This document shows, in pieces, positions 1,766 to 22,340 of a DNA stretch of 32,000 nt. The notes beneath the pieces were generated by a model. That model saw only the letters and a program-made list of their open reading frames with translations, searched no databases and had not been told where the DNA came from. How positions within the stretch are numbered: position 1 is the stretch's first letter; every line of letters begins with the position of its first letter. Location of the stretch: the NCBI GenBank assembly GCA_016699955.1, contig CP064993.1:1-32000 (forward strand). Reading direction: 5' to 3'. The position numbers and the translations under genes are program-made. This DNA is from Candidatus Saccharimonadota bacterium (GTDB lineage Bacteria; Patescibacteriota; Saccharimonadia; Saccharimonadales; UBA4665).

Positions 1766-1918
1766 ATGAGTGAGGTAAACCAATCGAACAAGAAAAAAGG
1801 TATCGGGCCGCCAAAAACGCTGTCATTATCTACCCAAGAACGGATAGAGCTTTTGGCAAACGTCATTTTGGATAAGATTTTGGCCGAAATGAATCCGGCA
1901 AGTGGTGCAAAGGGCTAA
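1766..1918 (+). CDS. small hypothetical protein (50 aa) coupled to the recombinase gene
   Basis: ATG at 1766 is preceded by AGGAGG (1757-1762), although the spacer is short. The TAA stop at 1916-1918 lies 1 nt before the recombinase ATG at 1920. There is no recognisable motif. Confidence 0.4.
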   Translation: MSEVNQSNKKKGIGPPKTLSLSTQERIELLANVILDKILAEMNPASGAKG

Positions 1919-1919
1919 T

Positions 1920-2978
1920 ATGGAATACGAGCCACATATTCAAAATGCCGTCGCTGCAATACGCGTGTCCACGACCAAGCAAGGGACGCAGGGCGATTCG
2001 CCAGAAGCACAAAAGGAACAGATAGAGCGGTATGCCCAAAGCCGCGGGATATGCATCAAAAAGCTGTTTTTATTTCTTGAATCGGCATCGAAGGAGCAGC
2101 AGCCTATGCAGGAAGCGATTGATTACTGTAAAAATCCAAAACACAAGATTGACCTGTTTATAGTGAAGTCGATAGATAGATTCACGCGTGGTGGCTCATA
2201 CTCATATAGTCAGCTTAAAATGCAGCTCGATAATGCAAATGTTCACCTGACTGATATCCATGGAATTATAGGCGCGCAAAAAGTGAATACGCTTGAACAC
2301 TTAGGCCTCAGCTACAAATGGAGCGTGTATGATCCGACGAAAAATTCAGAGATATTAGAGGCAGAGCGCGCGAGTGACGAAAAGCGAGATATCATGACGC
2401 GCATGATAGGTTCTCAGATTCGCTATGCGCGCTTAGGCTACTGGGTTCGGCGTGCACCGCTTGGATATAAAAATGTTCATGTCGAAACGATCAATGGCAA
2501 TCGATCTGTTTTGGAGCCGCATCCGCAACAAAGCCAATGGATTATCAAGATGTTCGAGTTGCGCTGCAGGGGGACGCTCGACGATGACTCAATTGTGCGC
2601 GAAATAAATAAGCTTGGTTTTCATACGCCCGTTAAATTTGTGCGCCATGAACATGACAAGACACGAATTATTGCCAAAAAGGGCGGCAGGCCTCTCAAAA
2701 TTAAGACTCTTCATGCATATCTTGCTAACCCTGTATATGCTGGCATCAATGCTGAGCGTTGGCTCATGGGCAAAGCGGTTAGATGTAGGTTTGATGGTCT
2801 TGTTTCCATTGAGATGTTCAATCAAGCAAACCGCGGACGCATAACTATCGTGGAGGAGGGAGACGAAGTTCGAATCGTAGAGAATAAAATGGAAACGCGA
2901 GTACCAAAACAAAGTTTAACCCGATGTACCCATATAAACGCGTGGTGGCATGCCCGACATGTGGTGCTTTGTTGTTAG
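1920..2978 (+). CDS. large serine recombinase, N-terminal fragment (resolvase catalytic + recombinase domains), frameshifted
   Basis: AAIRVSTTKQ catalytic-Ser motif, SIDRFTR, and recombinase-domain-like LGYK/YLANPVYAG. The C-terminal ~20 aa of this ORF are out-of-frame junk. Confidence 0.85.
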   Translation: MEYEPHIQNAVAAIRVSTTKQGTQGDSPEAQKEQIERYAQSRGICIKKLFLFLESASKEQQPMQEAIDYCKNPKHKIDLFIVKSIDRFTRGGSYSYSQLKMQLDNANVHLTDIHGIIGAQKVNTLEHLGLSYKWSVYDPTKNSEILEAERASDEKRDIMTRMIGSQIRYARLGYWVRRAPLGYKNVHVETINGNRSVLEPHPQQSQWIIKMFELRCRGTLDDDSIVREINKLGFHTPVKFVRHEHDKTRIIAKKGGRPLKIKTLHAYLANPVYAGINAERWLMGKAVRCRFDGLVSIEMFNQANRGRITIVEEGDEVRIVENKMETRVPKQSLTRCTHINAWWHARHVVLCC

Positions 2979-3607
2979 GGAGTGCAGCGAGGGGACATAC
3001 GGGAATAAGGTATCCTGCTTATCACTGTGATAGGCGGCGGAGCACGACAATGGATTATAAATACCATTATTTTCGGGAACGGAAAGAAAAGTTTGATGCA
3101 ACAATCGAGAAGTTTATCAAACGTATAGAGATAAAGCCAAAATACGAAAAGCAGATTATAACTACCGTGCTAAAACTATGGGAAAAGCGACAGGCTGAAT
3201 CACGGCGCGATATTCAGGCGGTTACTTTGAAAATTGACGAATTGAAGTTGCAAGCAGAGATGGTTGCGGAGAAGATAAAATTTTTAAGCTCTGAGGTCAC
3301 GATCAAATATTTAGAGGAGGATCTGTTGCGTATAGAGGCGCAGATAAAGAGCTACGATGAGTCGCGAGCTGGTAAGAATACCCAAGATGACCTAAGCCGA
3401 GAAGTCATAATTAAAAGCATAAAGAAACATATCAGACGACCCGATATGATCATACTGCGTCAGTCGGATCCCGTGCAGCAAGCAAACTTTTTTGGGCTAC
3501 TGTTCGATAGGGTGCCAAAATATAACGAGCTGGTTGACGTGCTGGAAGATGAAACGCTTGATATAGGGCTGAATCAACTGTTCGAGATACGAAAAAACAA
3601 CAGATGA
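2924..3607 (+). CDS. large serine recombinase, C-terminal fragment (zinc ribbon + coiled coil)
   Basis: CPTCG..(x)..YHCD zinc-ribbon pattern followed by a long heptad-like region. This frame is open from 2888 and overlaps the previous ORF, so a single shift lies within 2888-2935 (A-runs in ccaaaacaaag). Confidence 0.85.
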   Translation: MYPYKRVVACPTCGALLLGSAARGHTGIRYPAYHCDRRRSTTMDYKYHYFRERKEKFDATIEKFIKRIEIKPKYEKQIITTVLKLWEKRQAESRRDIQAVTLKIDELKLQAEMVAEKIKFLSSEVTIKYLEEDLLRIEAQIKSYDESRAGKNTQDDLSREVIIKSIKKHIRRPDMIILRQSDPVQQANFFGLLFDRVPKYNELVDVLEDETLDIGLNQLFEIRKNNR

Positions 3608-3674: not shown

Positions 3675-3890
3675 GTGAGTGACACTGATTTCTTAGAACA
3701 AATTTCCGCTAATCTATTGAAAATACGCAAACAGCAGCGCTACACTCAGCGTGAGCTTGCTAAGCTAGCAGGCTTGAACTCGAACTACTACGCAAAAGTT
3801 GAACGCGGCGAGGGCATGCCATCTATTAAGACCATCCATAAACTTGCCAAAGCCCTAAAGGTCACCGCGACCGACATCGTCGGGTTCTAG
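3675..3890 (+). CDS. XRE-family helix-turn-helix transcriptional regulator
   Basis: YTQRELAKLAGLNSNYYAKVERGEGMPSIKTIHKLAKAL is a canonical Cro/C1-type HTH. Confidence 0.9.
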   Translation: MSDTDFLEQISANLLKIRKQQRYTQRELAKLAGLNSNYYAKVERGEGMPSIKTIHKLAKALKVTATDIVGF

Positions 3891-4031: not shown

Positions 4032-5261
4032 ATGAACCCTAAATCAGAATACATACACCCAAACCTCCTTCTTGAATCATCTTACAAGGACTTACTAAAG
4101 CAATTTGATGACTACGGCCATATGATTGCCTGGGCTCGGGAAGAGAAACAGATTGAACTTGAGGATCTTATACGTCAGGACTGCGTATTTGTAGTTGGAG
4201 AGCCGGGACAGGGCAAATCACGGCTTGTACGAGAGCTTGCTGTTTTTGCCCAAACAAACGGCTATGGGACCTCAGTGGTTAGACTTAATAAGTTGGGTCG
4301 AGACCAATCTATCGAAGATGCACTTAGCGCTTCAGAAGAGCAAGTTAATTTTGATGTCTCAGCTAAGACAAATATGCTGGTATGTTTAGATGCTCTTGAT
4401 GAAGTTACTTCAAGCAAGTTTCCAGATACAGTGCAGCAGATTCGTCAGTATCTTGCTACCCACCCGGGGCATAAGGTAGTTATAACTTCGAGAATTCACT
4501 TTACCAAATATGAGGAAAGTCTTGCTCCTATTAATGCGTCATATGCTCTATTGATGCCAGTTGACCGCCAGGCACAGATAAAGTTACTGAAGCAATACGG
4601 ACTCACGGATCCGCAGATTGACGAGGCGTTTCTAAAGCTAAAACAGCAAGATAAAGAGACTGTTTTACAGACACCCCGATACTTAGAGTATTTCGCCCAA
4701 TGGTATGTGCAGCATGGTATTGGCAAAAAGGCTCTGAGCAGGTCCGACATCTTTGACCATTTTGTGAATCAGGCCTTGGGCGAAGAAGATAAAAAGGTCG
4801 ACAAGCGAATAGCTGCCCTTCGTAGGCGAACGCTCGAAAAACTAGCCTTGGTTATGGAGATTGCTCAAACAAATGCAATTAGCCAAGACGATATGATTAC
4901 CTTTATTGAAGATTACAAATCCGAAGCCAAACTGCTTTTACTAGGCAGTACTGATGACCTGGATACGATCTACAATCATGGACTTTTAAAGGACGACGGA
5001 GAAAAAATTGCGTTTGATAACGCCGAACTACAAGAGTATCTAGCGGCCTCAACGATTAACCGTATGGATGATCCTGGTCGTGCGGCGTTTCAACTGGCAA
5101 TAGATAAGGTCCAGCGTGCAATTCATCCAAGCTGGTACAGCGCACTTTCGTTCCTGCTCGAGATGCAGCCTGGACTACTTGTGGGTATCATCAATCTCGA
5201 AAAAGGCCACTCCAGAAAATCCAGAGCGACCACAGGACCCAGAAACTCACAAATTAATTAG
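4032..5261 (+). CDS. NACHT/STAND P-loop NTPase (NTPase + winged-helix module)
   Basis: Walker A GEPGQGKS, Walker B LVCLDALDEV, ITSR, LQTPRYLEYF, and FDNAELQEYLAA. The last ~20 aa look out of frame. Confidence 0.85.
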   Translation: MNPKSEYIHPNLLLESSYKDLLKQFDDYGHMIAWAREEKQIELEDLIRQDCVFVVGEPGQGKSRLVRELAVFAQTNGYGTSVVRLNKLGRDQSIEDALSASEEQVNFDVSAKTNMLVCLDALDEVTSSKFPDTVQQIRQYLATHPGHKVVITSRIHFTKYEESLAPINASYALLMPVDRQAQIKLLKQYGLTDPQIDEAFLKLKQQDKETVLQTPRYLEYFAQWYVQHGIGKKALSRSDIFDHFVNQALGEEDKKVDKRIAALRRRTLEKLALVMEIAQTNAISQDDMITFIEDYKSEAKLLLLGSTDDLDTIYNHGLLKDDGEKIAFDNAELQEYLAASTINRMDDPGRAAFQLAIDKVQRAIHPSWYSALSFLLEMQPGLLVGIINLEKGHSRKSRATTGPRNSQIN

Positions 5262-5677
5262 TGGGGGTAAGCTCTGAACTAATCACTGCTGAAGTAAGAG
5301 AAGCTATTTTCATCCAGGTCCTCAGTTATTATCTTGAGAACGACATATATATCAGGTTTGAGGTTTCAACGCGATTAGCATTTTATTCTAGCCCTGGTAC
5401 CGATGCCTACTTAAAAAAATGCGCTGAACAGCTTGAAAAGTCCAAATCATACGCAAATCTTGTAAATATTGCTCAAGTCGTCGGCAGCCTCAAGCGAATC
5501 AATCGCTTAAATGATGAAAATTACTGGAAGGAAAAATTACAAGCTTGGGCCTTACTTGATGGCGAGGATGATTTCACTACCGTTCTAAAGCGTCAGGCTG
5601 TGCACGCGCTCGAATTCTTTAACGACGAGGCTCTAATAGACGAATTGAAATCCTTACACTCCCACAAAATGAACTAG
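5261..5677 (+). CDS. alpha-repeat fragment, probable continuation of the STAND protein
   Basis: The GTG overlaps the upstream TAG. The sequence is all-alpha and HEAT-like (e.g. VLKRQAVHALEFFNDEALIDELKSL). There is no SD. Confidence 0.55.
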   Translation: MGVSSELITAEVREAIFIQVLSYYLENDIYIRFEVSTRLAFYSSPGTDAYLKKCAEQLEKSKSYANLVNIAQVVGSLKRINRLNDENYWKEKLQAWALLDGEDDFTTVLKRQAVHALEFFNDEALIDELKSLHSHKMN

Positions 5678-5697
5678 TAAGACGTGCTTACGAGGGG

Positions 5698-6036
5698 ATG
5701 TGCGATGCAATTAATGCAAATAACCCCCAATCGGTGAACACATTCGTAGAAGGGGTTAAGCACGATTCAATCGAAGCTCGAATGTACTTGTTAAATGTTA
5801 CCTCAAAAGATGGCTTGCTAGCATTATTGAGCGCAATAGCAACGGACGAAGTGTTTCTCCATGAATTGATTGAGCACGACAGCACATTTAGGAAGGATGA
5901 TAATAAGTTCTTCAGAAACACAGATAAGAAAATGGATGCCGAGCTGCTGGAGAAGTGTAAAAAGTCATTCATAAAGTCTTCGACATTGACCATGGATACT
6001 ATGTTGATCGTTCCAGCTTTATTGATCAGCTTGTAG
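5698..6036 (+). CDS. alpha-repeat fragment, probable continuation of the STAND protein
   Basis: The frame is open from 5638 and reads PQNELVRRAYEGMCDAINANNPQ immediately after ..LKSLHS of the previous frame. Confidence 0.5.
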   Translation: MCDAINANNPQSVNTFVEGVKHDSIEARMYLLNVTSKDGLLALLSAIATDEVFLHELIEHDSTFRKDDNKFFRNTDKKMDAELLEKCKKSFIKSSTLTMDTMLIVPALLISL

Positions 6037-6143
6037 AGCTCATTGCTAAGCATGACGCTAACTACTTTACAGAGCTAATTAACTGGGCGCTTGAGAGTGA
6101 CGAAATACCCAGAATTTTTGATCTTCAGCTTCATCTGTCAAAG

Positions 6144-7517
6144 ATGATGAGGAAATCAGACACCAAGCTTCTCAATGAACATATCAACGACCACCAAGAT
6201 ATTAAGGGCCATCTGCTCCGTATAGCAACAATTCTCGATGACCCTGCTTCGCCCAACCCAGATGCTAAGGAGATCATCAGCGAACTTAGAGAACTCCAGC
6301 GCGAGTTATTCAAGGAATATGATGAAGCAGTCCGAAAAATGTCCTTAAGGGGTCAGCGCGACAGAACTCAAGAAGAATTCGATAAAATGATGCAGCTCGT
6401 GATAGAGCATGGCCATATTAATGCACTGAATAAAGCGCTGGAAATGTTCAACAAAGAAGATAACAATGAACGTTTCGGTAAGAATGCTGATAAGTACCTA
6501 TGGTCTCACTGCAAGAAGATCATACTCGACCCGCTTGACCCCGCAACCGCTACACTGACAATCCACGAGAAGAAGCCAGATGGGTCCCAGCCTTTTACAA
6601 TCAGTAACTACATATGGGCCTACGGTGAGATAGCTAAATTCGCACGCAAGACCGGCAAAGACATTTCAAGCTACCGAAAAAAATTTGTAGCACTGCTGGC
6701 CTTCACTTACAACGAAGATACCGATGCTTGCCTTGACTTACTTGGCACTCTTTCTAGCGAGGAATCAAAGATACTGATTGATACATTCAAAAATCTGTCT
6801 TCTGATCGAGCACGTTTTCACCCTTCCAACTTTATAGACGCCGTTAAGCGCTTCCATCTAACCGAAGCCGTGGACATCCTTGACACTTTTGTGGATCAAG
6901 AAGAGTTCGAGATATATGTAAGACGAGATGCTCTCGAGTTGTCAGAAAACCTAAAACCTAACAAGGAACGACTTAGTGAGCTCGTGAAGAAGCATAGTGA
7001 TGAGAATAAGGAGTATTCACTAAAACGCACTGCAAATGGGTTGCTTATTACAAAGCATGATGATCCCGAGGCCATTAAGTGGCTCATGCAGAAAATTAAA
7101 GACTCTGCAGCAGAATTCGTAGAAAAGACTGGCGTACATAACGTGGGGGCGTTAGAACACGAACTACACGATGGGGAGATTGCGAAGCCACTACGGGAAT
7201 TATCGGATGCAAGGTACATAGATGATTATCTAGACTTACTGGATTTTTCCTTCCAGCTCTTTGCCAAAGGCGATAAATGGCATAACTATACATACTACAT
7301 TTGGAAGATTGTTACCGGCTATTTTGATCAGCTTAAGAATGGCCTAAAGTTTGAGCCACTAATGAAGCTTGAGAAATGGGTATCTGAACACCCCAAGCTA
7401 CCGGGCATCAATTACTTTAAGGACAAGATGGTCGAACTACGGCGATCATACACCGTAGCTATTGATCGCCCCAAAATATTAACGCAGCAATTAAGCTTGC
7501 AGAAAAGTACGAACTGA
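6144..7517 (+). CDS. alpha-helical repeat (sensor-like) fragment of the STAND protein
   Basis: 457-aa ORF. Its frame is open back to ~5970 (VFDIDHGYYVDRSSFIDQLVELIAKHDANYF..), overlapping the previous ORF. There is no enzymatic motif. Confidence 0.6.
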   Translation: MMRKSDTKLLNEHINDHQDIKGHLLRIATILDDPASPNPDAKEIISELRELQRELFKEYDEAVRKMSLRGQRDRTQEEFDKMMQLVIEHGHINALNKALEMFNKEDNNERFGKNADKYLWSHCKKIILDPLDPATATLTIHEKKPDGSQPFTISNYIWAYGEIAKFARKTGKDISSYRKKFVALLAFTYNEDTDACLDLLGTLSSEESKILIDTFKNLSSDRARFHPSNFIDAVKRFHLTEAVDILDTFVDQEEFEIYVRRDALELSENLKPNKERLSELVKKHSDENKEYSLKRTANGLLITKHDDPEAIKWLMQKIKDSAAEFVEKTGVHNVGALEHELHDGEIAKPLRELSDARYIDDYLDLLDFSFQLFAKGDKWHNYTYYIWKIVTGYFDQLKNGLKFEPLMKLEKWVSEHPKLPGINYFKDKMVELRRSYTVAIDRPKILTQQLSLQKSTN

Positions 7518-7557
7518 AGACGGTGCGGCTATATCTTCGGTAGAACAGCTTAAGTCT

Positions 7558-8085
7558 GTGCTCGAGAGAATTATTTGTGAAGAACTAATACCATGGATTG
7601 AAACAGACGCGCGTAAGATCATGAATGAAGCTCATGCTCAAAAATTAATAAAGGTACAGCTTGAAGCGAGTTTGCTTAAGAATGGATTTAATCCAAGTCA
7701 GTTACAGGTCTGCCACATAATTCGCGAAGCTCAGGAGCTTGACGATACAAGAACGGATTTCTTAATTTACCATGGTTTTATTGGGCCGGTTATCATTGAG
7801 CTCAAGCTCTTCTCAAATAAAGACCTGCACGCCAAAGACCTAACTACTAAGAAATCTTACGAAAGACTTAAGAACTATATGCGTCAGTATAAGACCGACC
7901 ACGCAATCCTACTTGCATTAGACAACGAGATTGCACTAGAAAGAGATGATTTATATAAAAGACGCACAGAGAAAATAGCCGATGCTTACACAACAATCTC
8001 GGGTGTTAGCGTGCACTCTGCACGACTATTTGATCGTGTCGAGAAGACTAAAAAGCCTAAACAAAAGAAGAAGAAGAAGAAATGA
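7558..8085 (+). CDS. PD-(D/E)xK-like nuclease domain fragment with a poly-Lys tail
   Basis: TDFLIYHG..GPVIIELKL fits the D...(D/E)xK core. The frame is open from 7495. The C-terminal KKPKQKKKKKK is encoded by (AAG)n. Confidence 0.5.
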   Translation: MLERIICEELIPWIETDARKIMNEAHAQKLIKVQLEASLLKNGFNPSQLQVCHIIREAQELDDTRTDFLIYHGFIGPVIIELKLFSNKDLHAKDLTTKKSYERLKNYMRQYKTDHAILLALDNEIALERDDLYKRRTEKIADAYTTISGVSVHSARLFDRVEKTKKPKQKKKKKK

Positions 8086-8552
8086 CCGAAGTTGAAGTCA
8101 AGGATCTTATAAAAGACTGGCACAGAAATAAGGCCAAGAATGAAAGAGACCCTTTCTTTCGTTTCTTGTGTCACTGGATTTGCTTTAATGCGTGGCTTGA
8201 TTATCAGTCGAAGAAAAGTACAGACCGGGCAATGCTCAATTGGCTTAAACTTCAAACACAAGACACATCGGATATTATGGCTTCATATGAGGCGATGAAA
8301 CTAACTACTGTTGGTAACCAGAACCTTCAATCACTAATAACAATGTGCCCAATCCTAGATAGTAAAGGCCGCGGCGATATTTCAATCAGAGACATCAATG
8401 ATCGTGACAATATTATTGAAGCCATTTACAAGATTAGGTGCAATTTGTTCCACGGTAATAAAAGATCAAGCAGTACCAGAGATACAAAACTAGTCACCTG
8501 TGCTAATCAAATAATGACAGAGTGGATTGATGATCTTATCAATACCTGGTGA
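8082..8552 (+). CDS. HEPN-domain protein (putative RNase)
   Basis: Rx4H motif in YKIRCNLFHGNK near the C-terminus. The protein is all-alpha. The ATG overlaps the upstream stop (ATGA). Confidence 0.6.
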   Translation: MTEVEVKDLIKDWHRNKAKNERDPFFRFLCHWICFNAWLDYQSKKSTDRAMLNWLKLQTQDTSDIMASYEAMKLTTVGNQNLQSLITMCPILDSKGRGDISIRDINDRDNIIEAIYKIRCNLFHGNKRSSSTRDTKLVTCANQIMTEWIDDLINTW

Positions 8553-8568
8553 TTACTAATAACGGCTA

Positions 8569-8778
8569 TTATTTTCCGGTTTGATCAGTCTTGAACGATT
8601 CCATTTCTTTGTGGAGTAAATCTTCGTCGATTCGTCCTAGCTCTCGGTACATGAGCTTCATTTTAATGAGCATTTGTCGTGCATAAACGGGGTTCGCGTT
8701 TTCAGGATCATTTTTCTCAAGGTCGCGAACCATTACGGCAATTTCTTCATCGGTTGGTATGTAGCCAGTCATATTCAC
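8569..8778 (-). CDS. small hypothetical protein (69 aa), coupled to the Mrr-like nuclease gene
   Basis: 4-nt ATGA overlap with the upstream gene. The product is an acidic helical protein. Confidence 0.55.
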   Translation of the reverse strand: MNMTGYIPTDEEIAVMVRDLEKNDPENANPVYARQMLIKMKLMYRELGRIDEDLLHKEMESFKTDQTGK

Positions 8779-9335
8779 AGTATAACACCTCTAATATTTC
8801 CGTTATTGTTTACCCAAAATGCCAGACTCTTTCTGTCGATCAACGCGCACTCATTCCCGGCAGCAAGCTTCTGTGCGGTCGTGCTGTAGGTGCTGTTGGT
8901 TACTACCATCGCACGATCGCAGCCATACAATTTCAATCCAGTTACGACTTGGCGTACTGCGCTAGCTTTAACTAGTCCCGAGTAATGCTTGACTTGCACA
9001 CCCCAGCGTAAGCCATCCTTCTCTGCGATGATATCCACCCCCATGTCATATTTTTCCGTAAGCGAAACATTACGATAGCCGTTATTTCTCATGAGTATTG
9101 CGACATATTGCTCAAATTCAAAACTATTCATACTGTCTATACTCCTGAGCCCCATGATTCGTCGATATGCAAAATACCTCCAGCCTATTCGCAATACAAG
9201 AGCGCAGCCTAATAACGCCAACGCAATAAACGCGATGTGTTCGAGTACCGCCCGGTGTGTCCATGCAGCAGCACCGACAAGGACGACGATGACAAAAGTT
9301 ACATCAGTACCTTGAGTCCGTGTGTGCCGTGACAT
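8775..9335 (-). CDS. membrane-anchored Mrr-type restriction endonuclease domain protein
   Basis: Two N-terminal TM helices, then FEFEQYVAILM..GVDIIAEKDG..WGVQVKHYSG..AVRQV (Mrr_cat D-x-QxK pattern). GAGGAGG lies 9 nt upstream of the ATG at 9335, so the listed ORF start at 9389 is probably too long. Confidence 0.8.
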   Translation of the reverse strand: MSRHTRTQGTDVTFVIVVLVGAAAWTHRAVLEHIAFIALALLGCALVLRIGWRYFAYRRIMGLRSIDSMNSFEFEQYVAILMRNNGYRNVSLTEKYDMGVDIIAEKDGLRWGVQVKHYSGLVKASAVRQVVTGLKLYGCDRAMVVTNSTYSTTAQKLAAGNECALIDRKSLAFWVNNNGNIRGVIL

Positions 9336-9493
9336 ATCAAACATCCTCCTCAGGAATAAGTCTTGGAAGCCTGCATCAAATCGCTCCAATTCTTGCCAAA
9401 AGGTGTTCCAGTTTTCCCCGAGAGGTCACCAGTATTTTAACAGATGAGATTTTAAACAATTCCGCTAGCCATATGGGAGTACATGGAACACTA

Positions 9494-9528: not shown

Positions 9529-9816
9529 ATGAGTAATACAACACTTCATATACCGATGGATAAGACCGTCCGAGATGTTTTGGAGACCAAGGCTAAACGG
9601 CTCGGCTTTGATTCTGCGCAGGCATATATTCGCGTATGGGCAAAGGCTGAGGCAGAGGACAGAAGCATCGACTATGGTATCGATGATTGGGGAAGGCCGA
9701 GTCCTACGGCCGCTAAAAGACTGAATAAAACAACGAGTGAGGCTCTGCGTGGGAAGAATATCTCCAAACCTTTTTTGACTGCACAGGATGCTCTTGATCA
9801 TCTCGAGTCCCTATGA
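9529..9816 (+). CDS. type II antitoxin (RelB/DinJ/RHH-like)
   Basis: 95 aa, 4-nt overlap with the downstream RelE-like toxin, and an N-terminal beta-strand/helix pattern (TLHIPMDKTVRDVLETKAKRLG). Confidence 0.7.
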   Translation: MSNTTLHIPMDKTVRDVLETKAKRLGFDSAQAYIRVWAKAEAEDRSIDYGIDDWGRPSPTAAKRLNKTTSEALRGKNISKPFLTAQDALDHLESL

Positions 9817-10079
9817 GGCCAGTAATTTTTCATCGTAATTTTGAAAAACACTATAAACAGCGTATAAAGCCACAGCAAAAACTGTCCGAGCAGTTCAGAG
9901 AACGCTACAAGCTCTTTCTTGCAGGTGAACGAGGCAAACCGCTCGATGACCACGCACTTAGCGGAAGCCTTCAGGGAAGACGTGCCTTTTCTATCACCGG
10001 CGATGTCAGAGTAATTTATATTGAACAGGCAGATAAAATCATTTTTCTTGATATCGGAACTCACAGTCAGGTTTATTGA
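9813..10079 (+). CDS. type II toxin, RelE/YafQ-family mRNA interferase
   Basis: HALSGSLQGRRAFSITGDVRVIYIEQADKIIFLDIGTHSQVY matches the RelE/YafQ C-terminal signature. Confidence 0.85.
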   Translation: MRPVIFHRNFEKHYKQRIKPQQKLSEQFRERYKLFLAGERGKPLDDHALSGSLQGRRAFSITGDVRVIYIEQADKIIFLDIGTHSQVY

Positions 10080-10383: not shown

Positions 10384-11574
10384 TTGTCTGGGCGGCTGTT
10401 TACCGGCTCTTGCAAGCGTTGCCAGAGTTTGGCACTTTGGGCCCTTGCTGTATGGTTCGCTGGGATACAGTCGGAGATCATGGTAGAGCTTGGCAATGTG
10501 TTCGTACCACTGCACAACATAGGACCGCTGTGCTGACGGTAGGTTAGCATTGTAGCGCAGATCTTGTCGTGCGGTACAGATGCACTCAGCAGAGCTGCTG
10601 TTGACCAGGTAACGCTGGGTTCGGTAGACACTGTAGCGATCAGTGACTCGGATACCCGCGAAGGGTTGGTCGGTGTCTTGCCAAACAATGCTTTGGCATG
10701 CGGCGCGCCACGGCTGGCGGTGAGAGTGTAACAAACCTTCGGGCTATTTGGCATCCGCTAGTATCAGGCGTAGCCACCAGCTGCTTGCTAAATGGCCATG
10801 GAGTTTCATCTGCATGGCCAGTGGGGGCTGCTCGTATGTCTGCAGTGGGCTGGGCGTAAGCCGGTAACCACGTCTGGTGTTTATGCTGGCGTATGGCGGC
10901 GATCTCACCGCCGGATACCACCAAGCTGTAGAGTGAAAGATGCAGCTGTACCACCCGTACGTAACTCATACCCACCACACTAACAAGGTGTACTACCAAC
11001 AAACGGACATTGGGGCCAAGCGTGACCGCTTGTCCGCCTAAATCTTGACCACTGGTAGCTTTGCCACACGCGAGGCAGACGCCTCGCTCAATGGTGTACT
11101 TGGTAGCCAGTTTTGCGTAGTAGTCAGGCCTTAACGCGGGTAGCGGTATATCTTCAACGAAGCGCTCATGCACGGTGATATTTACTGGGTTAAAACTACC
11201 GCCACAAGTACAGGTGGTAGGCAGTGGTACGGCCACCTCCGAAGTTATACTCTGGACCGGTGGTACAGGCCGACGGTAAGAGCTAGCCGTACGTGGCTGT
11301 TTGGCGGGGCGGTCAGACACCTTGGAGTCAATAGGCGTACCGCACGTTGGCGGACGTCGTTTTCTGCCGAATACCCTGGTCTGAAGCTCCGCGATCTGGA
11401 TGGCCTGATTCTTGTTCTGCTCAAGTGCTTGGTTGAGTAATTGGCGGAGCTCTTTGTTCTCAGCTTTCAATTCTGCGATCAGTTTGCGATCATGCGCATG
11501 CAGCTTCCGGAGGTTCCGGAGTTATACCATGCGTGCTGCAACTTCCTTGTCACTAAGTTTTTTACCGTAGGGCA
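10384..11574 (-). pseudogene. IS66-family transposase (TnpC-like), frameshifted and 3'-truncated
   Basis: Four consecutive pieces: (1) MPYGKKLSDKEVAARMV; (2) after a shift, LRKLHAHDRKLIAELKAENKELRQ (leucine zipper), a CxCG zinc-finger region and HADETPW; (3) after another shift near 10735, FAGIRVTDRYSVY; (4) a CWAH-like motif. The frame then runs into repeat copy A, and the C-terminal ~100+ aa are missing. Confidence 0.75.
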
Positions 11575-11656: not shown

Positions 11657-12711
11657 TATTAACCTCCCATACATCTTGCACACTTTCATCACCTCACTAA
11701 AGTAGAAAGGAGTGAAAGTGAGATACCGCAAGATGACAGAGAAACAATTGCTCGTGTATGGAGCACGGATTCGTTTAGGGTGGTTTCGTAAAGCCGAAGA
11801 ACTCGGGAATGTTGCGGCAGCCTGCCGGTTCTACGGCATTCCTCGACGAACATATTACTACTGGCATAGTCGCTGGGTGAGTCAGGGCAAAGCCCTGACG
11901 AGCCTGTACGATATGCCTCGTACGCCAAAGAGCCACACTAATGACGCCGATGACGAGGTAGTGAGTCTCGTCGTGCAGCTTCGCCTTGGTCTTGGTTACG
12001 GCGAAAATGCTCTTGCGCATGTCCTCAGGCGGGATTACGGCGTCGCCACATCTGTGCACGGTGTCCACAACATCCTGAGCCGAGCAAAGTTACTAGAAGA
12101 GCGCAAAAAGAAGGTACGCAAAACCCGCCAGCTCAGTGACCGTGAGTATTACCCGGGCGAAGTCGGACAGATGGATGTCAAACATTGGAAGCGCAAAGGC
12201 TACCAGTATGACATCGTCGACTGTGCTACGAGGATAAAATACAAACGGATCTATCCTGGATGCGACCCTGCGACAACGGTAGATTTTCTTGAGCATGCGG
12301 TCAGGTTCTTTGACCCAGCTTTCAGGTTCAAAGGGATTCAGACCGACAATGGCACAGAGTTCACCTACGACCATTTGCCGCAAGTGAGACCGGAAACAGA
12401 GTGCCCGACTGTCCGGTGGCTCAGAGAACATGGGATTGAGCACCTCCGCATCCCGCCGTCATCGCCACATCTCAACGGTCGAGTCGAGCGACCGCACGGA
12501 GTAGACAAGGATAGATACAAACGGCTAACAACGAATTCGCACACACTTGTCGAATTAAGAGAGTTTTGTAACGAAGATTGTCTCGACTACAACTTTTACC
12601 GACCGCATAGTATGCTAGACATGATGACACCGATTGAATACCTGCAAAGCTTGAAGGGTTACGAGCAGGCGACGGTGGATACTAGTGTGCTAGATGTTCG
12701 GTAGGTGGACC
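11657..12711 (+). mobile_element. IS481-family insertion sequence (~1055 bp) with imperfect terminal IRs and a 15-bp target-site duplication
   Basis: gcggttacgaagacg occurs at 11642-11656 and 12712-12726. With those boundaries the ends align without gaps (19/28, core ACATCTnGCACACT). Confidence 0.7.
11712..12704 (+). CDS. IS481-family DDE transposase (rve integrase core)
   Basis: N-terminal HTH (CRFYGIPRRTYYYW). DDE landmarks are MDVKHW, IQTDNGTEF and NGRVERPHG. The start could instead be GTG 11718 or ATG 11733. Confidence 0.85.
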   Translation: MKVRYRKMTEKQLLVYGARIRLGWFRKAEELGNVAAACRFYGIPRRTYYYWHSRWVSQGKALTSLYDMPRTPKSHTNDADDEVVSLVVQLRLGLGYGENALAHVLRRDYGVATSVHGVHNILSRAKLLEERKKKVRKTRQLSDREYYPGEVGQMDVKHWKRKGYQYDIVDCATRIKYKRIYPGCDPATTVDFLEHAVRFFDPAFRFKGIQTDNGTEFTYDHLPQVRPETECPTVRWLREHGIEHLRIPPSSPHLNGRVERPHGVDKDRYKRLTTNSHTLVELREFCNEDCLDYNFYRPHSMLDMMTPIEYLQSLKGYEQATVDTSVLDVR

Positions 12712-17906: not shown

Positions 17907-19787
17907 TTAGAATTGTCGGCGACGGCGCATACTGAAACGGCGCTTTGTTTGTGGCGCAAATGGTGTTGCAGCGAGCGGATCCGGCGACTCAAATGGCTCG
18001 GCAAGTGGCAACGGTGATGCCCCAAAATCAGCTGCAAGGTATGCCCGCTTGTGGCGGCGGAAAAGCAAATGACGGTACCATAGGAACCCACCGACTAATG
18101 CAGCCGAAGCCAAGGCAATGACATTGCCTGCGCCCGTTTCGGGCAGCGTTGCGGCTGGTGCAACACAGCGAACATCGTCTGCTGGTAGGCTTGCGTCGTA
18201 CTGGCATGGGTTGCAGCGAATATCGCCAACCGGAATGCCCGGCTTGCACTCAGGTACGGCTGGTTTAGATGGCTCAACTTTGGCGTAACAGTTAAAGCCT
18301 GACGCCTTCTCGACGCCAAACACATCAAAGTAGAGGGTTGCATGGGCGCTATACGTTCCTTGAGTTGGATACGTGTAGTCGGTAGTGATAGTACTGCTCC
18401 CCGCCGTAGCATTAACGCTGCGACTTTGCCCATCGCCAAAGACAAACAGTGCACGTTTTAGTACTGCGCCGTTGGCGGTTTTTGACTCTGCGGTAAACCG
18501 ATAGCCCATGGTTTGTCCGGAGAGCAGAGGGCCAGTTAGCCGCGAACATTCATAGACGGGCATAGGGTTCGTCACTACAGCAGTATCGCAGTCATCGTCT
18601 TTTGTCGGCTCGCCTGGGTTCACTTCTGGGGCACTGACACAGGCAGTGTTTGTTATGGCTTTGTCTGAGTAGGTCGTTACTTTTGCCGTTATTTTCAGGG
18701 TAACACTCGCATCTTTGGCAAGGCTTGGAATGGTATGTGTATAACTTTTGCCGTCAGCGGCTACTTTGCCGGTATCTGCTTTTACAAACACGACACCAGC
18801 TGGAGCTTTATCTGTCACGACAACACTAGTGAGTGCCTGTGAACCGGTGTTTTTAATAAGCAGACTATAGATAAATTCTTCGCCTACCTTTACTTCCTTG
18901 GTTTCAGCATCATTGACCTTTTTCTCTATGGAGACAGCTGGGACATCGACCCGAATGGGTAGCTGGCAGGTTTGACTGGTCGAAGTAATGCTCGTCCCGC
19001 CCGGAGCGCTGGCGGTAATAGTTAATTTTGCTGTATAAGTGCCTACTTTGTCGTAAGTGTGCTCAACTGCTTCAGTTGGATTTGTTTTGGTCACTGGCGC
19101 AGAACCATCGCCAAAGTCGTACACATATTTTGTTATTTGTGCGAGACCTGTTGCTCCTGCAGAAGCCGTAAAACGGTAAGTATTGGCCTTGCCGGCAACA
19201 GGTGATCTATTGAGCGCATTACATGTCGCGCCAGATGCAACTTTATCGCCTAAAACCGGATTTCCACAAACATTCATAACTGTAAACTGTGGGGTGCCGT
19301 TGCCGTCAAAGAGAACCTTAACCGCAAAGCTTTCTCTGCCACTAGCCCACCGCTGAGAAGGAGTTCCCGTGTAGTACGTCTTGCCTCCGATGCCGATTGC
19401 CGAAGAATTATTAAAATTAGACCGACCCATAGTTTTACTGTTTGTCATGACTGTTTGACCGTTCACGACTACTCTGCCGTCCCTGTAGACTGTCCCGTCC
19501 TTGGCGCTGCCGACAAATCTGGTATAATCTGCGCTACTAAGCCCAGAATACTGAAAGATTGCTTGCAGGTCTGTATGCCCAAGCCCATCACGATTCGCAC
19601 GTGTAACATCTATAAAATTCTGACTAGAGGTGAAGCCGCAGTGCATAATTGCATTTGTATCACAGTCCCCTGCGTTGACTTTCGGCGCGACAACCCCAAA
19701 GACCGCAACGAGCGAAATTATTCCAGACAAAAAAACTAGCTTTGCTCTTGAAGTTTCAAGTCGTATTTTTGTATTAAATGACTTCAT
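17907..19787 (-). CDS. sortase-anchored surface protein (N-terminal conserved domain, PKD-like and DUF11-like repeats, LPETG signal, long basic tail)
   Basis: Signal peptide (LVFLSGIISLVAVFGVVAPKVNA), FGDGS..HTY..GTYTA PKD motifs, DUF11-like VVVTDKAPAGVVFV, and LPETGAG + TM helix + a ~55-aa tail. Confidence 0.85.
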   Translation of the reverse strand: MKSFNTKIRLETSRAKLVFLSGIISLVAVFGVVAPKVNAGDCDTNAIMHCGFTSSQNFIDVTRANRDGLGHTDLQAIFQYSGLSSADYTRFVGSAKDGTVYRDGRVVVNGQTVMTNSKTMGRSNFNNSSAIGIGGKTYYTGTPSQRWASGRESFAVKVLFDGNGTPQFTVMNVCGNPVLGDKVASGATCNALNRSPVAGKANTYRFTASAGATGLAQITKYVYDFGDGSAPVTKTNPTEAVEHTYDKVGTYTAKLTITASAPGGTSITSTSQTCQLPIRVDVPAVSIEKKVNDAETKEVKVGEEFIYSLLIKNTGSQALTSVVVTDKAPAGVVFVKADTGKVAADGKSYTHTIPSLAKDASVTLKITAKVTTYSDKAITNTACVSAPEVNPGEPTKDDDCDTAVVTNPMPVYECSRLTGPLLSGQTMGYRFTAESKTANGAVLKRALFVFGDGQSRSVNATAGSSTITTDYTYPTQGTYSAHATLYFDVFGVEKASGFNCYAKVEPSKPAVPECKPGIPVGDIRCNPCQYDASLPADDVRCVAPAATLPETGAGNVIALASAALVGGFLWYRHLLFRRHKRAYLAADFGASPLPLAEPFESPDPLAATPFAPQTKRRFSMRRRRQF

Positions 19788-19959: not shown

Positions 19960-21114
19960 CTAACTTTCTCGGGAAAGTTTGCGGCTCAAGAACAACCGAT
20001 AGCCCACAGCGCTCAGGACACTTACGAATCCAAACAGTCCTATGACACTACCGGCACCCGTGTCAGGAAGAACCTGTGGTGTTGTAGGTGTGGTTGGGGT
20101 AGTCGGAGTAGTTGGGGTTGTAAATGTTACTGATTTTACGCAGTCTGCGTTATCTGCTGCGTACTTATCTTCGCCGTTGACATCGAACAGAAGCTTTACG
20201 CTCACACTAAACGTTCCGTCAGTTCCGTAGGTATGGGTCAAAGTAGTTTTGTCTGTTTCAAATGGTATGACATTTTGGCTACCATCACCCCATACGAGCG
20301 TCGTGTTTTTGTACGTCGCACCGTCTTTGGCAGTGTACTTAACTACCGCATTAACCGTACGATTTTCGTTGTTTGGTGTCAGTTTTAGGTCGTCACAGCT
20401 GTAGACTGGTATCACTACTGGGGGAGTTTTTACGGTGACAGTTGCATCATCGCAATCATCTTGGTCTTGACCTGGCTGATTAGGTACTTCTGTAGCATTG
20501 ACGCAAGCCGTGTTGTTTAGCGTGCCTTCAGTGTACTTAGTAACTTTTGCTGTCAAAGTGAAGCTCATGCTTTCACCTATTTTTAGGCTGGGGATGACGT
20601 AGTTCCAGGTGTTGCTGGTAATTGTTCCGACACCATTGGCGCTGACGAGTTGAATATTGGTATTTGAGGCAGGCGTATCGGTAACGGCGACGTTCTTCAA
20701 GTCTACTTCACCGTCGTTGGTAACTTTGATCTGGTAATTGTAGTTCTTTCCAACTTCAACTTCTACTGTTTCTTTACCTTCAACCTTTTTGTCTATCTTG
20801 ACGCTTGGCGTCTTTTGGACTGGAGGAGGTGTAAAGGTAACTGTCTTACTACAAGCAACGTTCGCTGCAGGAGCTTTGTCTGTACCGTTGACCGTAAACA
20901 ACATGTTTGCTTGTACAGTGTAAGTGCCAGCGGCGGCATAGGTGTGATTACCGGTTGTACCTGTTATGACATTTTGGCTACCATCACCCCATACGAGCGT
21001 CGTGTTTTTGTACGTCGCACCGTCTTTGGCAGTGTACTTAACTACCGCATTAACCGTACGATTTTCGTTGTTTGGTGTCAGTTTTAGGTCGTCACAGCTG
21101 TAGACTGGTATCAC
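19960..21114 (-). CDS. C-terminal fragment of a sortase-anchored PKD/DUF11 surface protein (LPDTG signal)
   Basis: Begins inside a repeat unit with no signal peptide. Ends with a (PTT)n linker, LPDTGAG, a TM helix and RKLSRES. Confidence 0.8.
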   Translation of the reverse strand: MIPVYSCDDLKLTPNNENRTVNAVVKYTAKDGATYKNTTLVWGDGSQNVITGTTGNHTYAAAGTYTVQANMLFTVNGTDKAPAANVACSKTVTFTPPPVQKTPSVKIDKKVEGKETVEVEVGKNYNYQIKVTNDGEVDLKNVAVTDTPASNTNIQLVSANGVGTITSNTWNYVIPSLKIGESMSFTLTAKVTKYTEGTLNNTACVNATEVPNQPGQDQDDCDDATVTVKTPPVVIPVYSCDDLKLTPNNENRTVNAVVKYTAKDGATYKNTTLVWGDGSQNVIPFETDKTTLTHTYGTDGTFSVSVKLLFDVNGEDKYAADNADCVKSVTFTTPTTPTTPTTPTTPQVLPDTGAGSVIGLFGFVSVLSAVGYRLFLSRKLSRES

Positions 21115-21789
21115 TACTGGGGAGTTTTTACGGTGACAGTTGCATCATCGCAATCATCTTGGTCTTGACCTGACTGATTAGGTACTTCTGTAGCATTGAC
21201 GCAAGCCGTGTTGTTTAGCGTGCCTTCAGTGTACTTAGTAACTTTTGCTGTCAAAGTGAAGCTCATGCTTTCACCTATTTTTAGGCTGGGGATGACGTAG
21301 TTCCAGGTGTTGCTGGTAATTGTTCCGACACCATTGGCGCTGACGAGTTGAATATTGGTATTTGAGGCAGGCGTATCGGTAACGGCGACGTTCTTCAAGT
21401 CTACTTCACCGTCGTTGGTAACTTTGATCTGGTAATTGTAGTTCTTTCCAACTTCAACTTCTACTGTTTCTTTACCTTCAACCTTTTTGTCTATCTTGAC
21501 GCTTGGCGTCTTTTGGACTGGAGGAGGTGTAAAGGTAACTGTCTTACTACAAGCAACGTTCGCTGCAGGAGCTTTGTCTGTACCGTTGACCGTAAACAAC
21601 ATGTTTGCTTGTACAGTGTAAGTGCCAGCGGCGGCATAGGTGTGATTACCGGTTGTACCTGTTATGACATTTTGGCTACCATCACCCCATACGAGCGTCG
21701 TGTTTTTGTACGTCGCACCGTCTTTGGCAGTGTACTTAACTACCGCATTAACCGTACGATTTTCGTTGTTTGGTGTCAGTTTTAGGTCG
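20266..21789 (-). repeat. tandem duplication, 2.18 copies of a 699-bp (233-codon) PKD+DUF11 unit
   Basis: The ORF track shows identical 90-aa shadow ORFs at 20815..21087 and 21513..21785 (offset 698). The protein segments are identical except P/S (NQPGQ vs NQSGQ). One copy junction has G4 (21119-21122) instead of G5 (20420-20424). Confidence 0.9.
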
Positions 21790-22340
21790 TCACATGTCAG
21801 TACCGGAACAACAACCGTGTTCTGTGCTTTTACGGGATTACCACATGACTTAATGACTGCTCCAACAAAACGTCCTTGAGCATCAAGCCACACAAAGGCA
21901 GATATTTGGGTGCTTGCAAAACTTACACTCGGTGGTCTCTGATAAAAGGTTTTGCCTCCAGCTTGGATGGTTGTACTACCCGGCATGTATTGTCGACCGA
22001 CAGTTACAGCATTATTTGCCACAACCTTGCCGTCAACGAGAACTTTGCCGTCCTTTGTAACGTACCCCGATTTGGCACTTGCTGCGCCGTTAACCATACT
22101 ACTTGTGATGCCGAAATAGTCATACAGCGACGGAATGTCGCCGGTATACTTAGCTTTCAGTGTTGCGGCATCGTAAGCACCACAATACATGACGGCATTA
22201 GCATCACAGTCAGCCGCACTTGAGCTTCGAGAATCAACGTACAAATTAGTTGCACTATATAATACAGCCATAAATAAGACGACAGCAGATACTGTAAGTA
22301 CCTTCTTAAATCGTTTCCCAGTGCCCTTGAAATTGAACAT
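21114..22340 (-). CDS. N-terminal fragment of the same surface protein (signal peptide, conserved N-domain, PKD + DUF11)
   Basis: Signal/TM LTVSAVVLFMAVLYSA and an N-domain paralogous to the 626-aa protein. Terminates at ..TVKTPQ* where the sister repeat reads ..TVKTPPVVIPVYSCDD. RBS is aagggaga. Confidence 0.8.
   Translation of the reverse strand: MFNFKGTGKRFKKVLTVSAVVLFMAVLYSATNLYVDSRSSSAADCDANAVMYCGAYDAATLKAKYTGDIPSLYDYFGITSSMVNGAASAKSGYVTKDGKVLVDGKVVANNAVTVGRQYMPGSTTIQAGGKTFYQRPPSVSFASTQISAFVWLDAQGRFVGAVIKSCGNPVKAQNTVVVPVLTCDDLKLTPNNENRTVNAVVKYTAKDGATYKNTTLVWGDGSQNVITGTTGNHTYAAAGTYTVQANMLFTVNGTDKAPAANVACSKTVTFTPPPVQKTPSVKIDKKVEGKETVEVEVGKNYNYQIKVTNDGEVDLKNVAVTDTPASNTNIQLVSANGVGTITSNTWNYVIPSLKIGESMSFTLTAKVTKYTEGTLNNTACVNATEVPNQSGQDQDDCDDATVTVKTPQ

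Follow-up and report, generated by a model that had tools for sequence, protein, structure and literature searches.

The DNA analysed here (the window) comprises 32,000 nucleotides (nt) of a Candidatus Saccharimonadota bacterium (assembly GCA_016699955.1, contig CP064993.1, positions 1 to 32,000 of the forward strand). Our subject is a module on the plus strand at 4032-8552, in which five same-strand open reading frames (ORFs; 4032-5261, 5261-5677, 5698-6036, 6144-7517 and 7558-8085) are followed by a further one encoding a protein of 156 amino acids (aa). The original prediction, made from the sequence alone, had read the five ORFs as a single ~1350-aa chain of a NACHT-STAND NTPase, alpha-repeats and a C-terminal PD-(D/E)xK-like nuclease, with a coupled HEPN gene behind it. 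All six ORFs were recovered where it had placed them, the five larger-gene ORFs proved to be fragments of one gene, and the motifs that it had named were all present (GEPGQGKS, LVCLDALDEV, ITSR, FDNAELQEYLAA, TDFLIY, IELKL and RCNLFHG). The features of the module are as follows.

4032-8085, plus strand: gene for a predicted STAND/NACHT NTPase with HEAT-like solenoid and C-terminal PD-(D/E)xK nuclease; ~1351 codons after repair, five ORFs in the window.
4197-4220, plus strand: Walker A/P-loop GEPGQGKS, which fits GxxGxGK[ST]; E57, G59, G61 and K62 invariant in 20 members.
4377-4406, plus strand: Walker B with acidic extension, LVCLDALDEV (NACHT-like D-A-L-D-E), which fits hhhhD plus a second acidic pair (D-[GA]-h-D-E); D120, L122, D123, E124 and V125 invariant.
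4482-4493, plus strand: ITSR with the sensor-1 arginine behind the third core strand; R154 invariant.
5013-5048, plus strand: winged-helix signature FDNAELQEYLAA; F329 invariant; N331, E333, Q335, E336, Y337, A339 and A340 nearly invariant.
5530-5860 (approximate), plus strand: HEAT-like repeats, corresponding to residues ~500-610 in the intact protein; matches to alphaRep and HEAT_2.
5900-7520 (approximate), plus strand: all-alpha solenoid, presumed sensor, from an AlphaFold2 (AF2) model and Foldseek.
7624-8040, plus strand: predicted PD-(D/E)xK-like nuclease domain, from invariant residues and AF2 topology.
7624-7641, 7723-7734, 7753-7770 and 7795-7809, plus strand: catalytic candidates, namely the E of NEAHAQ, the E of REAQ, the D of TDFLIY and the ExK of IELKL, respectively.
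8082-8552, plus strand: intact gene for the 156-aa, all-alpha protein; ATGA overlap with the STAND stop, RCNLFHG at 8436-8456.

Three-frame translation revealed that sensible protein sequence carries on in another frame at each ORF boundary, as predicted. Repair of six 1-bp indels yielded a frame of 1351 codons that is open up to its terminal stop, and the pieces, joined into a conceptual 1351-aa chain, served as search query. Intact proteins of 1349-1358 aa were matched with 99-100% coverage (E = 0) and up to 93% identity. Seven intact single-ORF orthologues (P0001-P0007) share 93, 82, 74, 72, 63, 56 and 45% identity with the chain, about 50 more proteins of ~1300-1400 aa share 21-32%, and 76 more distant family members were found in genomes from many phyla. 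The family ranges over Patescibacteria (candidate phyla radiation), Bacteroidota, Nitrospirota, Planctomycetota and plasmids of Campylobacterota. With intact single proteins aligning to 99-100% of the chain, sequence comparison establishes that 4032-8085 is a single gene, encoding a bacterial NLR-like (STAND, NACHT-type) protein of ~1350 aa in one chain, and refutes the reading of five genes. Existing annotation of the family members is limited to "hypothetical" or "NACHT domain-containing"; precomputed matches of distant members to the recent Pfam entry PF28130 suggest that part of the family is already curated. Two distant members with ~30% identity (P0011 and P0012) carry an additional N-terminal helix-turn-helix (HTH) of the excisionase/MerR type (HTH_17) ahead of the NTPase.

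Residue conservation was read from family alignments of 20 (A1) and 43 (A3) sequences. The NTPase starts ~45 residues from the N-terminus; since the P-loop begins already at residue 57, an N-terminal effector is absent, in agreement with the original prediction. The family consensus of the winged helix is FxNxExQEYLAA, and we take the signature in the window to be the NLR-type FxHxxxQE[FY]LAA motif with Asn replacing His; the nearly invariant N331 occupies the position of the ADP-contacting His. Among the 20 family members, Pfam NACHT was matched by 12 (E<=1e-3), NPHP3_N by 11 and nSTAND3 by 10, and the gathering cut-off of NACHT (PF05729, 26.7 bits) was passed by P0007 (30.7 bits) and P0015 (32.4 bits). 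Judged by its motifs, the domain appears to have the hallmarks of a NACHT-type STAND NTPase, except for the exchange of His for Asn in the winged helix.

Between the NTPase and the C-terminal domain, a HEAT-like alpha-solenoid spans roughly 750 residues, which bears out the predicted alpha-repeats. The family profile matched designed HEAT-like alphaRep structures (E=4e-9), and Pfam HEAT_2 was found in 8 of the 20 members. An AF2 model of residues 621-1350 of P0001 (predicted local distance difference test, pLDDT, 88.8) consists of an unbroken alpha-solenoid, with helices only, to about residue 1165. In Foldseek it resembled importin-beta, AP-2/AP-3 and other HEAT/ARM solenoids, with probabilities of up to 1.0.

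The last ~150 residues of the model form an alpha-beta-beta-beta-alpha-beta-alpha-beta succession (H581-598, E609-613, E625-629, E632-641, H656-667 and E673-679 in the numbering of the modelled sub-sequence). E1201, E1234, D1244, E1258 and K1260 are invariant in 43 of 43 sequences and in 19 isolated domains; in the model they are carried by helix 1, by strand 1 at its end, by strand 2 at its start and by strand 3 (the last three residues being D624, E638 and K640 in sub-sequence numbering), which is the PD-(D/E)xK arrangement. Pfam searches with isolated C-terminal domains returned sub-threshold but concordant matches to PDDEXK_3, REase-ARP, Tox-REase-9, VRR_NUC, McrBC, SfsA and PDDEXK_4. Invariant residues and modelled topology together make the C-terminal domain a predicted nuclease, well supported but not proven, as the original prediction had proposed from TDFLIY and IELKL.

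To locate the breaks, the window was aligned to L002 (the contig of P0001, 88% nucleotide identity) and then jointly to the four intact relatives L001, L002, L079 and L082. All indels among the four intact relatives are multiples of three; the six 1-bp indels are confined to the window and all lie in or beside short A or G homopolymer runs:

5200, plus strand: +1 insertion; A5 in the window, A4 in L002, the closest intact relative; window-specific against L001, L002, L079 and L082.
5263, plus strand: +1 insertion in a G5 run; window-specific against the four intact relatives.
5665-5666, plus strand: -1 deletion beside an A4 run.
5961-5962, plus strand: -1 deletion in or beside an A run.
7472-7473, plus strand: -1 deletion; A4 in the window, A5 in L002.
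7503-7504, plus strand: -1 deletion; A4 in the window, A5 in L002 and L091.

The original prediction had expected breaks at four or five junctions, a count that has to be corrected to six indels. The two shifts that it had placed in 7470-7560 were both found (-1 at 7472/3 and -1 at 7503/4), and there is a break at the junction where the GTG at 5261 overlaps the upstream TAG; this one consists of both +1 insertions, which lie 63 nt from each other and enclose a stretch in the true frame. With six 1-bp homopolymer indels, the STAND gene as given in the window cannot yield a full-length protein. In-frame changes were found as well: a window-specific -3 at 4503 removes one Phe of a conserved HFF (HFF to HF), and a +6 at 8065 lies within an AAG repeat. 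The latter belongs to the Lys-rich C-terminal tail of the STAND protein (8040-8085), encoded by an AAG/AAA repeat that varies in length, is 6 nt longer in the window than in the four intact relatives and L091, and lies directly upstream of the ATGA overlap. L091, an independent short-read contig, is 97% identical over the 1.3 kb aligned and ~99% identical over 7485-8600, and has an intact A5 at 7503.

Lineage-specific substitutions, called with three outgroups, numbered 22 synonymous and 15 non-synonymous in the window vs 21 and 14 in its intact sister L002, and replacements at positions where the other four sequences agree numbered 12 vs 11. The substitution counts gave no sign of relaxed selection on the window copy, and the repaired frame contains no internal nonsense codon. 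This shows that normal purifying selection acted on the STAND gene essentially up to the present, so that the breaks are either sequencing or consensus errors or very recent. Of the earlier suggestion that the locus might be a dead fossil, the old, decaying form is excluded by the symmetric substitution counts; a very recent inactivation remains, besides consensus error.

The stop codon of the STAND gene overlaps the start of the 156-aa gene by four nucleotides (ATGA, 8082-8085), an arrangement common to all five close loci (the window, L001, L002, L079 and L082); the STAND proteins of the four relatives are 72-93% identical to the repaired window chain. The 156-aa gene is translationally coupled to the STAND gene in this close subclade (at least 72% identity) only. 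It is absent downstream of the STAND gene at 56% and 45% identity, the locus at 45% has no downstream partner gene, and the 76 distant genome loci gave no clear homologue, with a single weak match (E=4e-6) ~1.8 kb downstream in L015. The coupling stated by the original prediction accordingly stands for the close subclade and fails for the rest of the family. At distant loci the downstream genes are heterogeneous (transmembrane proteins, a trypsin-like peptidase, radical SAM, and weak HEPN/AbiU2 matches in two loci). The motif R[NDH]xxxH occurred in 3 of 56 downstream ORFs at those loci, not above the background of 4.1%, so that a general rule of "STAND plus HEPN" is unsupported. An hhalign comparison of the 156-aa profile with neighbours in L005, L007 and L083 found nothing.

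At the 56%-identity orthologue, the STAND gene is abutted by an unrelated 223-aa gene (L083 4494-5165, L084 4459-5130) with a canonical ELIRNGIAH and no Pfam match, which may stand in for the 156-aa partner without being homologous to it.

The 156-aa family itself is larger than this association. Its 26 close members are without a Pfam domain, and profile search extended it to ~1,410 cluster representatives. Members occur in a type I restriction-modification (R-M) operon (L085 7001-7486), after a GmrSD/DUF2779/Macro cluster (L092 6001-6474), directly after hsdS (L095 2151-2615) and also alone, which characterizes the family as a portable accessory of differing defence operons and not a core part of the STAND system. 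Across 63 members, with identities as low as ~25%, R119, H124 and G125 do not vary. In the all-alpha AF2 model of the 156-aa protein (pLDDT 93.4), R119-F123 end the penultimate helix (108-123), H124-G125 open the loop to helix 132-155, and three short helices (48-87) are inserted between helix 24-43 and helix 108-123. In HEPN domains, the active-site motif straddles the junction where core helix 3 gives way to the loop preceding helix 4, and an insert is located between helices 2 and 3 (PMC3710099). The modelled position of Rx4H agrees with this active-site position as described by Anantharaman et al. 2013 (PMC3710099). A profile search of the PDB with the 156-aa family found nothing, and the PADLOC model DzbB matched the protein with 8e-4.

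In L002, codon 54 of the 156-aa gene (7191-7664), which specifies an invariant Trp, is changed from TGG to TGA next to an intact STAND gene, the reverse of the situation in the window; coverage of this contig is 1.4x and the TGA may be an error.

The module lies within an island at ~1.9-12.7 kb of the window, flanked by ordinary chromosomal genes (a histidine kinase, FolD and a Mur-ligase family gene). Its other features are:

1902-3607, plus strand: large serine recombinase with a Resolvase domain; a single frameshift at the A run around 2905-2915 divides it into ORFs of 358 aa and 227 aa.
3675-3890, plus strand: XRE-family HTH gene, 71 aa, possible regulator; Pfam HTH_3 2e-15, PADLOC control-protein and CapH-like matches.
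8569-9389, minus strand: 69-aa gene and Mrr_cat restriction-endonuclease gene (204 aa); Mrr_cat 1e-25, NA-iREase1 3e-8.
9529-10079, plus strand: toxin-antitoxin pair, a 95-aa protein without Pfam match followed by an 88-aa YafQ/ParE-family toxin with a 4-nt overlap.
10640-11470, minus strand: IS66-like transposase fragment, with more short ORFs in other frames below it (region from 10350).
11712-12704: IS481-family transposase, apparently complete, marking the right edge of the island.

Both recombinase halves match a single 567-aa ORF beside a STAND family member in L038, and the split recombinase marks the island as mobile. Resolvase genes adjoin the STAND family gene in L001, L002, L080 and L038; those in L001 and L002 are not homologous to the recombinase of the window. 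The neighbours on an Arcobacter plasmid include a dGTPase, DUF3800 and an AAA ATPase. This fits a family that travels as cargo of mobile defence islands. An XRE regulator ahead of the module had also been predicted: the HTH_3 gene is present, its position upstream of the STAND gene is conserved only in the closest locus, L002. The left flank gene 634-1647 is likewise common to the window and L002. Homologues of the convergent pair, in which the 69-aa gene (8569-8778) overlaps the 204-aa gene (8775-9389) by 4 nt and which faces the STAND and 156-aa genes, were found in L002 and L091 only, and its membership in the module is not demonstrated. The 204-aa Mrr_cat protein has N-terminal hydrophobic segments and also matches the "NACHT-associated inactive REase 1".

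Farther downstream, three consecutive minus-strand ORFs (17907-19787, 19960-21114 and 21114-22340) encode DUF11/PKD/isopeptide-type repeats; the latter two meet at 21114 and might represent a single surface-protein gene interrupted by a frameshift or a stop codon. Nucleotide searches of the window against E. coli genomes, phages and plasmids gave no match, no tRNA was found in it, and a promoter/terminator scan was uninformative, yielding fewer sites than shuffled sequence.

What could the module do? We consider it likely that the gene encodes a single-chain NLR-like anti-phage protein with a sensor solenoid and a C-terminal DNA-cutting domain, joined in the close subclade by an accessory Rx4H partner. 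By analogy with Avs and bNACHT, the solenoid would bind a ligand derived from a phage or altered by infection. The NTPase would then oligomerise in a nucleotide-dependent manner and gather the C-terminal PD-(D/E)xK nuclease domains, which would cut DNA and so abort the infection. The 156-aa Rx4H protein may act as an accessory RNase-type effector or back-up, comparable to PrrC in EcoprrI-type R-M loci; a regulatory or inhibitory role would also be conceivable.

Several observations weigh against this explanation. The defence role and the mechanism of oligomerisation and cleavage are suggested by analogy only, and in PADLOC-DB 2.0 no Avs or NLR-like model matched the STAND protein, the best matches being unrelated P-loop models (PtuA 2e-4). 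The NTPase fragment of the window (23.0 bits) and P0001 (24.3 bits) stay just below the NACHT cut-off of 26.7 bits. For the nuclease domain, Pfam, Foldseek and PDB searches gave no significant single profile or fold match: the best Pfam match was PDDEXK_3 in one member only (E=0.002), the sequence search of the PDB with the C-terminal domain returned no match, and Foldseek reached E=0.08 for Ecl18kI, with a 730-residue model whose results were dominated by the solenoid, the domain not being searched alone. The 156-aa partner is not needed for the core function, because it is absent from most of the family. Its motif reads R-C-N-L-F-H, i.e., Cys at +1 and Asn at +2, and the polar residue (N/D/H) that usually follows the Arg in HEPN proteins is missing. 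Foldseek with the 156-aa model remained at E>=1.7 for the PDB and E>=0.47 for BFVD. Pfam searches with 21 members peaked below the cut-off with MauJ (PF17419, 1.3e-4), and HEPN_Apea appeared in 3 of 21 (best E=0.073). The pEK499_p136 HEPN family, considered since its described contexts (R-M, Macro) fit the 156-aa family, was rejected: hhalign against a 42-sequence alignment built for this purpose gave a probability of 0.6%. The recombinase and STAND genes together have, finally, 7 frameshifts in 90 homopolymer runs vs 0 in 272 runs of 18.6 kb of other large ORFs in the window, which have full-length domain matches, and frameshifts confined to the island are also explicable by selection acting on real mutations.

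Against this background the alternatives differ in weight. That each of the five ORFs is a gene in its own right, the annotation that a mechanical ORF caller would produce, is practically inconceivable: a possible ATG or GTG start exists on each piece, but all pieces are covered collinearly by the seven intact relatives (45-93% identity) and by dozens of more distant ones, a window-specific 1-bp indel sits at every ORF boundary, and the relatives carry single ORFs instead of five separately conserved genes. It is improbable that the family is no anti-phage sensor and belongs to the mobile island itself, e.g., as a DNA-processing or addiction factor travelling with serine recombinases. Such a role would account for the repeated adjacency of large serine recombinases, the excisionase/MerR-type HTH of P0011 and P0012, and the lack of a match to the PADLOC models. 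However, the adjacent recombinases are non-homologous between loci, which suggests cargo over machinery, many of the 76 distant loci have no adjacent same-strand partner gene and the partners vary (recombinases were not surveyed there), and a STAND NTPase with a large repeat domain and a nuclease is the canonical layout of an immune receptor (Kibby et al.; Lee et al. 2026). We think it somewhat unlikely that the small protein is something other than an RNase effector, such as a regulator, an inhibitor or an immunity-like partner restraining the nuclease, or merely an independent small defence or toxin gene stacked behind the large one. The HEPN profile and fold matches without significance, the occurrence of the family behind unrelated defence operons and alone, and the lack of the partner at most STAND family loci agree with such a role. 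So do the intact STAND gene beside a TGA-bearing small gene in L002 and the reverse situation in the window; as each gene is intact where the other is broken, neither strictly needs the other. Yet R-x4-H-G is absolutely invariant in 63 members down to ~25% identity, which points to catalysis over mere binding, the position of the motif is that of the HEPN active site, and the ATGA overlap was retained in five loci diverged to 72% identity. By analogy, an accessory HEPN-like RNase effector or back-up is the most likely role of the 156-aa protein. The original assignment to HEPN rests on the invariant Rx4H and its matching topological position and finds no backing in the profile and fold tests; since all of these were negative or sub-threshold, the term "HEPN-like" is a reasonable hypothesis, not a finding. 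The more far-reaching idea that the 156-aa Rx4H proteins form a new, highly divergent family of HEPN-like RNases, a portable second-line effector or guard for unrelated first-line defence machines (here a C-terminal-nuclease NLR, elsewhere type I R-M and GmrSD-type systems) that in the STAND subclade is physically controlled by the NLR-like protein, appears unlikely to us; if true, this would be a bacterial NLR with two effectors (DNase and RNase) and a C-terminal effector end.

As to the origin of the breaks, we would tentatively allow that the frameshifts, six in the STAND gene and one in the recombinase, are genuine mutations, i.e., that very recent homopolymer slippage inactivated both large island genes and the STAND gene is a fresh pseudogene. 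A mismatch-repair-deficient lineage, with selection keeping the rest of the chromosome intact, is an example that we hold with the same reserve. Under such a scenario the indels would be expected only in dispensable island genes, as observed, with the 272 runs of the other large ORFs remaining open; both +1 and -1 events occurred, the in-frame loss of the conserved Phe at 4503 is likewise window-specific, and the exact 457-aa fragment is without record elsewhere. Against real mutations stand the lack of an excess of window-specific substitutions (22/15 vs 21/14) and of nonsense codons. The ratio of indels to substitutions is about 1:10 by our own estimate, and under a normal spectrum six indels should bring tens of additional substitutions. 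Each of the seven events, moreover, adds or removes 1 bp within or beside a short homopolymer, which is the classic signature of consensus error, and the nearest relative keeps an intact run at the single site that it covers (7503). A uniform sequencing error over the window is excluded by the intact remainder. Altogether, consensus error restricted to an island of low coverage or strain variability is slightly favoured over a recent burst of slippage in dispensable genes.

Bacterial STAND/NLR-like receptors constitute a large, only partly explored arm of anti-phage immunity, and this family provides a clean, widespread example of an inverted layout without any N-terminal domain and with the predicted nuclease at the far C-terminus. 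The reconstruction yields the intact orthologues P0001-P0007, which are open to testing, and the Rx4H family, common to R-M and GmrSD-type operons, emerges as a candidate modular accessory effector. For the annotation, five "hypothetical" ORFs become one disrupted gene, and a local cluster of homopolymer indels is flagged.

Among the known systems, the closest parallels are found in bNACHT proteins (Kibby et al., bioRxiv 10.1101/2022.07.19.500537). They share with this family a NACHT NTPase with Walker A, a D-x-x-D-E Walker B, the sensor Arg and a QE[FY]LAA winged-helix motif, a large C-terminal repeat region, and an effector of the REase fold, here predicted. Unlike them, the family described here has Asn in place of the winged-helix His and no N-terminal domain, and its close subclade adds a small Rx4H gene coupled to the large one; no homology to tested bNACHTs was seen beyond the NTPase, and the NLR-like models of PADLOC are not matched. 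With Avs/AVAST proteins (Avs1-21; Lee et al., Nature 2026, PMC13581612) it has in common a single chain of STAND NTPase, large alpha-helical repeat sensor and nuclease effector, and the expected logic would be the same, i.e., ligand-induced oligomerisation activating the effector. The order of the domains differs: Avs proteins have an N-terminal effector, a central NTPase and a C-terminal sensor, whereas here the NTPase is followed by the presumed sensor and then by the predicted effector, so that the Avs layout is not found. With regard to the nuclease, PD-(D/E)xK effectors such as the Mrr/Cap4-like domains of Avs and bNACHT25 show the same E...D...ExK on an alpha-beta-beta-beta-alpha-beta core; the domain modelled here differs in its C-terminal position and in matching no Pfam REase family above threshold.

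The 156-aa family resembles the PrrC/RloC-type HEPN anticodon nucleases (PMC3710099) in its Rx4H at the modelled HEPN position and, like HEPN genes of R-M operons, also occurs within or after such operons, as well as beside a Macro gene. Positions inside or behind R-M operons are documented for at least 16 HEPN clades, and PrrC has been proposed as a paradigm for such genes (Anantharaman et al. 2013, PMC3710099). In contrast to PrrC/RloC, the 156-aa protein lacks an ABC-ATPase domain and has a Cys after the Arg, and its family is without significant similarity to the Pfam HEPN families or pEK499_p136, with MauJ (PF17419, function unknown) as best sub-threshold match.

The module had been described as an unnamed system of unusual layout. 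The first part agrees with the lack of a PADLOC model match; the second was overstated, since a minority of bacterial NACHT proteins with the effector at the extreme C-terminus, after the repeats, has already been noted by Kibby et al. (bioRxiv 10.1101/2022.07.19.500537), who argued that the curved repeat region returns such an effector to its usual spatial position. Lee et al. 2026 (PMC13581612) distinguished 589 STAND clades, of which 198 are defence-associated. The family described here probably belongs with the bacterial NLR-like (bNACHT/Avs-type) defence proteins, as a candidate new variant whose effector is C-terminal and one subclade of which is paired with a member of an undescribed Rx4H family. 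The class of C-terminal-effector layouts itself is already in the literature (Kibby et al.), and nothing here contradicts current understanding.

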